IMG/VR virus record: IMGVR_UViG_3300043803_001772
Length of the DNA stretch: 18,119 bases
Direction: 5' to 3' (one strand)
Source of the DNA: a virus
Lineage: Duplodnaviria; Heunggongvirae; Uroviricota; Caudoviricetes
Each line of letters opens with the position of its first letter. The first letter of the stretch is position 1. The notes under the pieces were generated by a model that was not told the DNA's origin, searched no databases, and worked only from the letters and a program-made list of their open reading frames with translations. This document shows positions 4,665-4,737 of the stretch, piece by piece. Made by a program: the position numbers and the translations under genes.

Positions 4665-4737
4665 TGGAGCGGGTCCGAACTTTGCATTTCGCCTTTTAGT
4701 CTGGTAGACTAACGTGCTCTCTTTACACCTGACCCGC
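4665..4737 (-). tRNA. atypical tRNA-Gly-like, anticodon ACC
   Basis: perfect GCGGGTC/GACCCGC acceptor, U73, CCA; perfect TTAGT/ACTAA anticodon stem, loop CTACCAG; D-loop AAAGAGA lacks GG; T-loop TGCAAA. Confidence 0.7.

Follow-up and report, generated by a model that had tools for sequence, protein, structure and literature searches.

Glycine tRNAs that serve outside translation are known from staphylococci, in which the non-proteinogenic (NP) tRNA-Gly species, NP1-3 of Staphylococcus aureus and Ia/Ib of Staphylococcus epidermidis, are the glycyl donors for FmhB, FemA and FemB; to date, these two species are the only ones in which extra non-proteinogenic tRNAs that serve peptidoglycan synthesis have been found (PMC7826273). 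A different use of charged tRNA-Gly was described in 2026 for phage Mu, whose Mom protein, which has a GNAT fold, moves glycine from Gly-tRNAGly to DNA adenine; the product in DNA is N6-carbamoylmethyl-adenine, and Mom probably recognises only the 3′ end of the tRNA (PMC13219725). Here we describe a tRNA-Gly-like gene with an ACC anticodon, under the working name E1, at positions 4665-4737 of a stretch of 18,119 nucleotides (the window; IMG/VR record IMGVR_UViG_3300043803_001772, 33.6% G+C) from a large uncultured freshwater phage. The gene is conserved and apparently transcribed, and it may be a glycine carrier that is kept out of translation. The proteins encoded in the window bear only a distant resemblance to those of cyanophages and other aquatic phages.

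The anticodon of E1 has few precedents. tRNAGly-ACC is completely absent in eukaryotes, tRNAs with A34 are mostly absent in archaea and essentially confined to tRNA-Arg in bacteria, and a natural tRNAGly(ACC) is unreported in the genomes surveyed (PMC4928997). An earlier note on this DNA, made from the sequence alone, had called Gly anticodons with A34 essentially missing from cellular genomes, and the literature agrees. We also searched the literature for phage tRNAs that naturally combine Gly with ACC, and nothing relevant emerged. The same anticodon has been made in the laboratory, by changing E. coli tRNAGly1 from UCC to ACC and human tRNAGly from GCC to ACC; these mutants are aminoacylated by glycyl-tRNA synthetase (GlyRS) but, unlike E1, have normal tRNA bodies.

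E1 lies on the minus strand inside a tRNA array, its RNA running from a 5′ end at 4737 to A76 at 4665 (73 nt, with the CCA encoded), and the next gene after it, across a spacer of 10 nt, is a tRNA-Met. The RNA forms the tRNA cloverleaf, with perfect acceptor (7 bp) and anticodon (5 bp) stems, but its T stem has only four Watson-Crick pairs plus an A·G, and the universal set of tertiary nucleotides is incomplete: A8 stands for U8, G-A for G18-G19 and A53·G61 for G53-C61. The T loop has U54-G55-C56 in place of T54-Psi55-C56 and, at 6 nt, is one short of the standard 7. The earlier note had placed the gene correctly, leaving the strand unstated, and its description of the two perfect stems, the ACC anticodon, the missing D-loop GG and the UGC of the T loop is borne out by the sequence; A8, the A53·G61 apposition, the shortened T loop and a possible C32-G38 pair went unmentioned in it. 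ARAGORN made no call of E1 at thresholds down to 70%, and only a spurious one at 60%, and the Rfam tRNA model RF00005 left E1 unmatched at E<=10 in a 301-nt search. A weak Rfam match to YrlA (E 0.76) was dismissed, as it came mostly from the neighbouring tRNA-Met. The fold of E1 has a z-score of -3.1, and none of 200 shuffles folded equally well.

Conservation, covariation and transcription of E1

Pattern scans found E1 in about 80 phage contigs, 21 from IMG/VR and about 55 from metagenomes, mostly labelled as freshwater. Among bacterial and archaeal genomes, one per species, a scan for the loop pattern yielded nothing beyond three chance matches to unrelated sequence, and when the locus was compared by megablast and blastn with 50,697 cultured-phage records, E1 was unmatched and only the neighbouring tRNA-Met matched. 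Across the roughly 80 contigs, conservation is bounded exactly by G1 and A76, the spacers and flanks being different, and at least five different genes stand downstream of E1 in different phages.

We distinguished 13 E1 variants, in which 99.6% of stem cells are paired and compensatory double changes occur in the acceptor and anticodon stems. Their loops, which are invariant except at positions 9, 20 and 44, are more conserved than their stems. Roughly half of the relatives have a D loop with the ending ...GAGG|GCAC; in these a GG, absent from the D loop of E1 itself, falls at the junction of loop and stem. A covariance model, R1, built from the 13 variants also detected diverged versions of E1 in the large contigs G002 and G007. 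Once these versions are added, there are 14 distinct ACC-type sequences; all of their 280 stem cells are paired, and compensatory double changes are seen at 13 of the 20 pairs, a number that was matched by 0 of 500 shuffles. The compensated pairs include all five of the anticodon stem, all four of the T stem and acceptor pairs 4-7. In a related RNA from another phage genome, G017, the D stem is found in the compensated form GUAU/AUAC.

In metatranscriptome contigs from three studies, E1 is covered at a depth of 8-51, against a depth of 0 for the flanking protein-coding open reading frames (ORFs). The contrast with the uncovered ORF flanks speaks for transcription rather than DNA carry-over; contigs of this kind cannot reveal the ends of an RNA.

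If E1 were a decaying tRNA-Gly pseudogene, its rejection by the tRNA finders and the loss of several universal tRNA nucleotides would be readily understood. The earlier note had proposed a search for homologues with compensatory changes as a way of recognising such decay, and this search gave a clear answer: because the changes in the stems are compensated, the pseudogene reading is excluded. The complete pairing, the 13 compensated pairs, the greater conservation of the loops and the retention of E1 through repeated array rearrangement and deep divergence all run counter to decay, which we regard as extremely improbable. Judged from this pattern of sequence variation, E1 is a real gene under selection.

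Glycine identity and origin

The identity set of bacterial (E. coli) GlyRS consists of G1-C72, C2-G71, G3-C70, U73, C35 and C36. The full set is present in E1, as the earlier note had read from the sequence. Across the 14 ACC-type sequences, pairs 1-72 and 3-70 together with U73, C35 and C36 are invariant, and pair 2-71 is C-G save for one U·G wobble; acceptor pairs 4-7, unlike these identity positions, vary freely in the family. The 3′ end CGCUCCA is invariant in the freshwater alignments of E1 and of its paralogue E2 (described below), including the phages' canonical tRNA-Gly genes; a few E2 variants and the G017 RNA have a different end.

Canonical tRNA-Gly genes with GCC and UCC anticodons are present in a complete 296-kb relative (G001). 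E1 is identical to the phage canonical tRNA-Gly in six of the seven acceptor pairs, in U73 and in CCA, with the seventh pair differing, and it shares with them a variable region of 4 nt, the overall length and the context of a tRNA array. The canonical genes differ from E1 in the elbow, the T stem, position 8 and the wobble base, and score 50-70 bits with the Rfam tRNA model. With R1, E2 scores 37 bits, canonical tRNA-Gly with UCC 35 and with GCC 26, and all other tRNAs score 22 bits or less. At the level of sequence, the nearest relatives of E1 are the phages' own canonical tRNA-Gly genes, and E1 evidently arose from a phage tRNA-Gly.

The change from GCC to ACC in human tRNAGly leaves charging by GlyRS in place (PMC4928997). 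We infer that the function of E1 depends on its being glycylated or, at a minimum, on its binding to GlyRS, and its glycylation seems probable. It is conceivable that E1 is a tRNA-like RNA with no need of glycine, serving as a processing signal for RNase P or as a regulator of GlyRS or of a tRNA-binding protein. Its invariable position between other RNA genes of the array, where it adjoins the abundant element X in the window (see below), would suit such a role, as would the family member of G017, which stands alone and apart from any tRNA. A processing signal, however, needs no invariant C35, C36 or U73 and no conserved D and T loops, and the remaining tRNAs in the array manage without one. 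We consider a glycine-free role quite improbable.

Features bearing on translation

In the published additive model of EF-Tu binding (PMC3239215, Table 2), which assumes a normal T arm, the pairs C49-G65, G50-C64 and A51-U63 of E1 come to about -9.0 kcal/mol, and the phage canonical tRNA-Gly to -10.2 and -10.5 kcal/mol. Values for comparison are about -9.6 kcal/mol for S. aureus NP tRNA-Gly and -10.8 kcal/mol for the bacterial Gly mean (PMC7826273). The predicted binding of EF-Tu to the T stem is weaker in E1 than in staphylococcal non-proteinogenic tRNA-Gly. At the elbow, G19 has become A, Psi55 has become G and the G53-C61 pair has become A·G. The otherwise universal U33 is replaced by G in the versions from G002 (loop CGACCAG) and G017 (loop CGUCCAG). 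Moreover, E1 coexists, in unchanged form, with canonical tRNA-Gly genes, with both GCC and UCC in G001 and with UCC in one further locus (L085).

Most relatives also carry E2, a paralogue with a UCC anticodon that lies in tandem 8-9 nt after E1 and is missed by the tRNA finders; the window is without it. E2 has the GCG/U73/CCA ends of E1 and a T loop of UG[C/U]AAGU, into which 6 nt are inserted in some cases. In its anticodon loop there are 6, 7 or 8 nt depending on the lineage, each of these lengths being backed by compensated stems. Because of the elbow, the EF-Tu value, the E2 loops, G33 and the coexistence with canonical tRNA-Gly, we favour a role for E1 outside decoding, and we think it somewhat probable that E1 is excluded from decoding.

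The opposing view is that E1 is an odd but working decoder, whose A34 would read GGU, or all GGN codons if it is unmodified. E1 and its UCC paralogue would then supply the Gly codons that end in A or U, and the elbow would evade a host factor or suit a phage factor. Codon usage and decoding studies speak for this view, and to that extent weigh against a carrier kept out of translation. GGU, the Watson-Crick match of ACC, is the commonest Gly codon in the window (154/270), GGA, which is matched by UCC, comes second (69/270), and every canonical tRNA of the array reads a codon ending in A or U; furthermore, E. coli tRNAGly(ACC) in which A34 is left unmodified decodes every Gly codon and functions in elongation (PMC6103715, PMC4928997). 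A decoder would also accord with the scarcity of canonical tRNA-Gly, found in only one of 81 related loci, and with the anticodon loop of the ACC type, which always has 7 nt and A37 and is invariant in the E1 clade, and the elbow may have been rebuilt rather than lost (A18·G55, with G19-C56 kept).

Decoding is difficult to reconcile, however, with the G33 of the G002 and G017 versions, with a C32-G38 pair that can close the anticodon loop to 5 nt, and with E2 loops of 6 to 8 nt. By the published model, the T stem would be among the weakest possible for EF-Tu, while the bodies of tRNA-Gly need very tight EF-Tu binding, according to E. coli work as it is cited in PMC7826273. In addition, E1 is kept beside canonical GCC and UCC tRNAs, and molecular dynamics suggested that A34 distorts the anticodon loop in tRNA-Gly (PMC4928997). 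Taking both sides together, we think a working decoder unlikely. As regards modification of A34, the contigs from RNA runs list no letter other than the A-encoded one at position 4705, which carries little weight on editing, as contigs drop rare variants; G001 encodes no TadA, and its sole deaminase is a ComEB-like dCMP deaminase.

The earlier note had seen in the lost GG and the UGC of the T loop the hallmark of the staphylococcal non-proteinogenic tRNA-Gly, and this parallel stands in part. Like those RNAs, E1 is extra to canonical genes, has UGC/UGU for T-Psi-C and no GG in the D loop, and combines an A51-U63 pair predicted to be weak for EF-Tu with retained GlyRS identity (PMC7826273). The parallel does not extend to lineage, anticodon loop or partner enzyme: E1 is of independent origin and encoded by phages of an uncultured freshwater lineage, it has ACC with A37 where the staphylococcal RNAs have UCC with C37, it differs further in A8, A53·G61, the 6-nt T loop and C49-G65, and no Fem-family gene was found in G001. 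E1 thus probably works like staphylococcal NP tRNA-Gly, but outside that lineage and without a Fem partner, and is probably non-decoding.

Two more tRNA-like genes of the array, both with CAU anticodons, are uncalled by ARAGORN and Rfam. Their T loops read GGCAGCA and UGCGAUU, with G55-C56, and neither has a D-loop GG. Since these genes have the elbow change too, it is not specific to glycine. Just upstream of the array lies a gene for a SpoU-family RNA 2′-O-methyltransferase of 180 aa, for which TrmH, the methylase of G18, is the best match in NCBIfam, though with a score well under the cut-off; this protein could act on the odd tRNAs of the phage.

Candidate consumers of glycine and the surrounding array

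The enzymes that G001 encodes bear on who might use a glycine carried by E1. FemAB (PF02388) and Acetyltransf_6 (PF13480) are both absent from this genome, which also lacks any L/F-transferase, EF-Tu of its own or core of a class IIa synthetase. G001 does have two genes that match the Pfam Mom family (PF25680), one scoring 169 bits and the other 145, and both keep the catalytic residues R111 and S124. Two genomes reached by way of Mom, G002 at 89% completeness and G017 at 100%, both contain an E-family RNA along with a PF25680 gene, and all three near-complete related genomes examined (G001, G002 and G017) encode Mom-family enzymes. The Mom of G017 is only 46% identical to that of G001, and a fragment reached through Mom homologues, G018, has an E-family RNA as well. 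The RNAs of G017 and G018 are lone ones that end in UCUA, not UCCA; in the 216-kb complete genome of G017, there is no tRNA within 4 kb of the RNA and the Mom homologue is about 30 kb away. Among the 50,697 cultured-phage records, only 234 (0.46%) are matched by Mom-like proteins.

Our best explanation, which we hold tentatively and with somewhat less than even confidence, is that E1 is a selected glycine carrier kept out of translation, a paralogue of tRNA-Gly for which Mom is the most likely consumer. Because the parts needed for charging are kept while those that meet EF-Tu and the ribosome are rebuilt, E1 is most likely a carrier of glycine outside translation. T4-like freshwater phages would transcribe E1 within the tRNA array, and its kept features would let it be cut from the array transcript as a tRNA. 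Host GlyRS would then charge it through the acceptor identity pairs, U73, CCA, C35 and C36, whereas the T-stem pairs, the D/T-loop elbow and the geometry of the anticodon loop, which would face EF-Tu and the ribosome, would have been rebuilt. The most likely consumer would be the Mom-family GNAT of the related genomes, which by analogy with Mu would place glycine onto DNA adenines, and a private Gly pool free of EF-Tu would supply Mom without competing with translation. The Mu system is similar in that the phage encodes Mom, with glycine drawn in Mu from charged tRNA-Gly and the link here being one of co-occurrence; it is dissimilar in that Mu relies on ordinary host isoacceptors and encodes no tRNA. 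No dedicated phage tRNA for Mom is described in the literature examined.

Several points count against Mom as the consumer, or against a donor role in general. The link to Mom is a co-occurrence in related phages and, because the phages are related, the co-occurrences are not independent. Mom and the E-family RNA are 30-155 kb apart and never adjacent, G007 has the RNA but no Mom in its 73% complete sequence, and there is no Mom in the 10 kb flanking the window on each side. Mu Mom makes do with the normal tRNA-Gly of its host, which means that such an enzyme has no need of a tRNA of its own. Finally, a donor role leaves unexplained both the invariant A34 and 7-nt loop of the ACC type and the elbow change of the CAU genes, which are not Gly genes. 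A link between E1 and Mom thus appears possible but doubtful. Eleven Mom-bearing fragments (23-48% complete) contained no clear E-family RNA and one weak 24-bit match, and are too incomplete to count; a first look with the E1 model at the Mom-bearing Aeromonas phage PX29 came up empty and was uninformative.

The window itself encodes a GNAT of 128 aa, which we rejected as a Mom, as it showed no likeness to Mom and had no informative match among solved structures. A common freshwater variant of Mom is found inside a T4-like head module, where its neighbours are genes for a GIY-YIG endonuclease, the gp23 capsid protein, a prohead protease, a portal protein and an ankyrin-repeat protein.

A glycyl donor and a decoy, the two roles put forward in the earlier note, are both putative for E1. 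As a decoy, E1 would be a sponge for host toxins that attack the acceptor end of tRNA-Gly: GNAT toxins acetylate Gly-tRNAGly, toxSAS enzymes pyrophosphorylate the CCA end, and a charged E1 free of EF-Tu would be the most exposed target. tRNA-Gly is reported to be preferred by GNAT toxins of the AtaT, AtaT2 and TacT type (PMC7595197, PMC7470980, PMC9177977), and the antiphage-linked toxSAS FaRel2 targets tRNA-Gly and reads its acceptor stem (PMC11559606). The conserved parts of E1 are precisely the acceptor end together with the Gly identity set, which suits a decoy. The array also has the remodelled, initiator-like CAU genes, and Met-tRNAfMet was the first reported target of AtaT (PMC7595197); because toxins target both tRNA-Gly and Met-tRNAfMet, a decoy could account for both kinds of odd tRNA. 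On the other hand, the two acceptor pairs that FaRel2 depends on, G4-C69 and G5-C68, are free to vary among family members, a decoy that works by stoichiometry is poorly suited to countering a toxin that works by catalysis, the host is not known to have a toxin of this kind, and the conserved anticodon, D and T loops would go unexplained. We therefore regard a decoy as rather unlikely, and retain the glycine carrier as the preferred reading.

The array around E1, whose order differs widely among relatives, has further peculiarities (Table 1). One tRNA, which ARAGORN misses, combines the Leu-type anticodon UAA with a variable arm that is short, and is split after U34 by a group I intron (Rfam, 74.8 bits), at the position of the intron in cyanobacterial tRNA-Leu(UAA). 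Intron-less versions of 76 or 88 nt occur in relatives, and one contig from an RNA run leads from 5308 back to 5113, the kind of junction that a circular intron would produce. Between this tRNA and E1 lies element X, of about 300 nt, which reaches a metatranscriptome depth of about 5,700, far above the 8-51 of E1 and the zero depth of the ORFs. Contigs of two runs join 5046 back to 4740, which suggests that element X is a circular or permuted RNA; it is absent in relatives where E1 directly follows tRNA-Leu. The tRNA-Ile(UAU) has an extra arm of 21 nt (type II-like); most relatives have this tRNA, in some cases with two copies in one array. A gene for an HNH homing-type endonuclease stands between tRNA-Leu(CAA) and tRNA-Ile. 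A second tRNA cluster in G001 comprises more than 20 genes, among them a phage tmRNA (with a tag ending ...VALAA) and a tRNA-like gene in which ARAGORN reads a 4-nt anticodon (CUCU).

Table 1. Coordinates of E1, its parts and the other features discussed (positions are in the window unless a locus is named)
Feature	Position	Strand	Basis or remark
E1, whole gene, ACC anticodon, encoded CCA	4665..4737	-	Sequence, conservation, covariation, own covariance model R1 (106 bits), metatranscriptome cover
Acceptor stem, 5′ strand GCGGGUC (positions 1-7)	4731..4737	-	Pairs with 4669-4675; 7 bp
A8, G9	4730-4729	-	Precede the D arm
D arm: stem GUGU/GCAC (U13·G22), 7-nt loop AAAGAGA	4714..4728	-	Stem invariant in E1 clade
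Anticodon arm: 5-bp stem UUAGU/ACUAA, 7-nt loop CUACCAG	4696..4712	-	Loop invariant in the 13 E1 variants
Anticodon ACC	4705-4703	-	Within loop CUACCAG
C32, G38	4707, 4701	-	Watson-Crick pair possible
Variable region AAGG, 4 nt	4692..4695	-	Common to E1, E2 and the G002, G007 and G017 versions
T arm: stem CGAA/UUCG, then A53·G61, 6-nt loop UGCAAA	4676..4691	-	Stem pairs compensated in diverged members
T-stem pairs C49-G65, G50-C64, A51-U63, A52-U62; loop begins U54 G55 C56	4676..4691	-	
Acceptor 3′ strand GACCCGC, discriminator U73 (4668), CCA (4667-4665)	4665..4675	-	
tRNA array	4578-7570	-	Contains E1
Element X	4748-5050	-	
tRNA(UAA), Leu-type	5074-5351	-	
Group I intron of tRNA(UAA)	5327-5135		Rfam
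HNH homing-type endonuclease gene	5510-6172	-	
tRNA-Ile(UAU)	6222-6315	-	
CAU tRNA-like genes	6557-6630, 6636-6712	-	
SpoU-family methyltransferase gene	9203-9745	-	
GNAT gene, 128 aa	16276-16662		Rejected as Mom
E2 examples	L007:6690-6764, L001:8437-8516, plus 17 other variants		Alignment
Canonical tRNA-Gly GCC and UCC of G001	L093:1059-1132 and 1563-1636		
Second tRNA cluster of G001	L093 (G001:190000-202000)		
tRNA-like gene with CUCU read as anticodon	L093:11002-11077		ARAGORN
Lone E-family RNA of G017	L212:2084-2158		3′ UCUA
Lone E-family RNA of G018	L213:2033-2107		3′ UCUA
Mom homologues	L097:1429-2211, L098:1348-2088, L138:1495-2268		
Mom variant in T4-like head module	L209:10001-10774		

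In its widest form, the proposal is that a lineage of large T4-like freshwater and marine phages encodes non-proteinogenic tRNA-Gly genes of the ACC and UCC types, which would be charged by GlyRS, be invisible to EF-Tu and the ribosome, and supply DNA hypermodification by Mom. We offer this only as a possibility, and one more apt to fail than to hold. If true, no non-proteinogenic tRNA would have been known from a virus before E1, and no tRNAGly(ACC) from nature. As a second, independent and virus-encoded case, it would show that the division of a tRNA pool among translation and other kinds of chemistry is a solution that arises repeatedly, and the tRNA-dependent modification of DNA recently discovered for Mom would gain a source of glycine that can be put to the test. 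Because the standard finders miss the E1 family, its UCC paralogue and the CAU genes, inventories of phage tRNAs undercount such genes.

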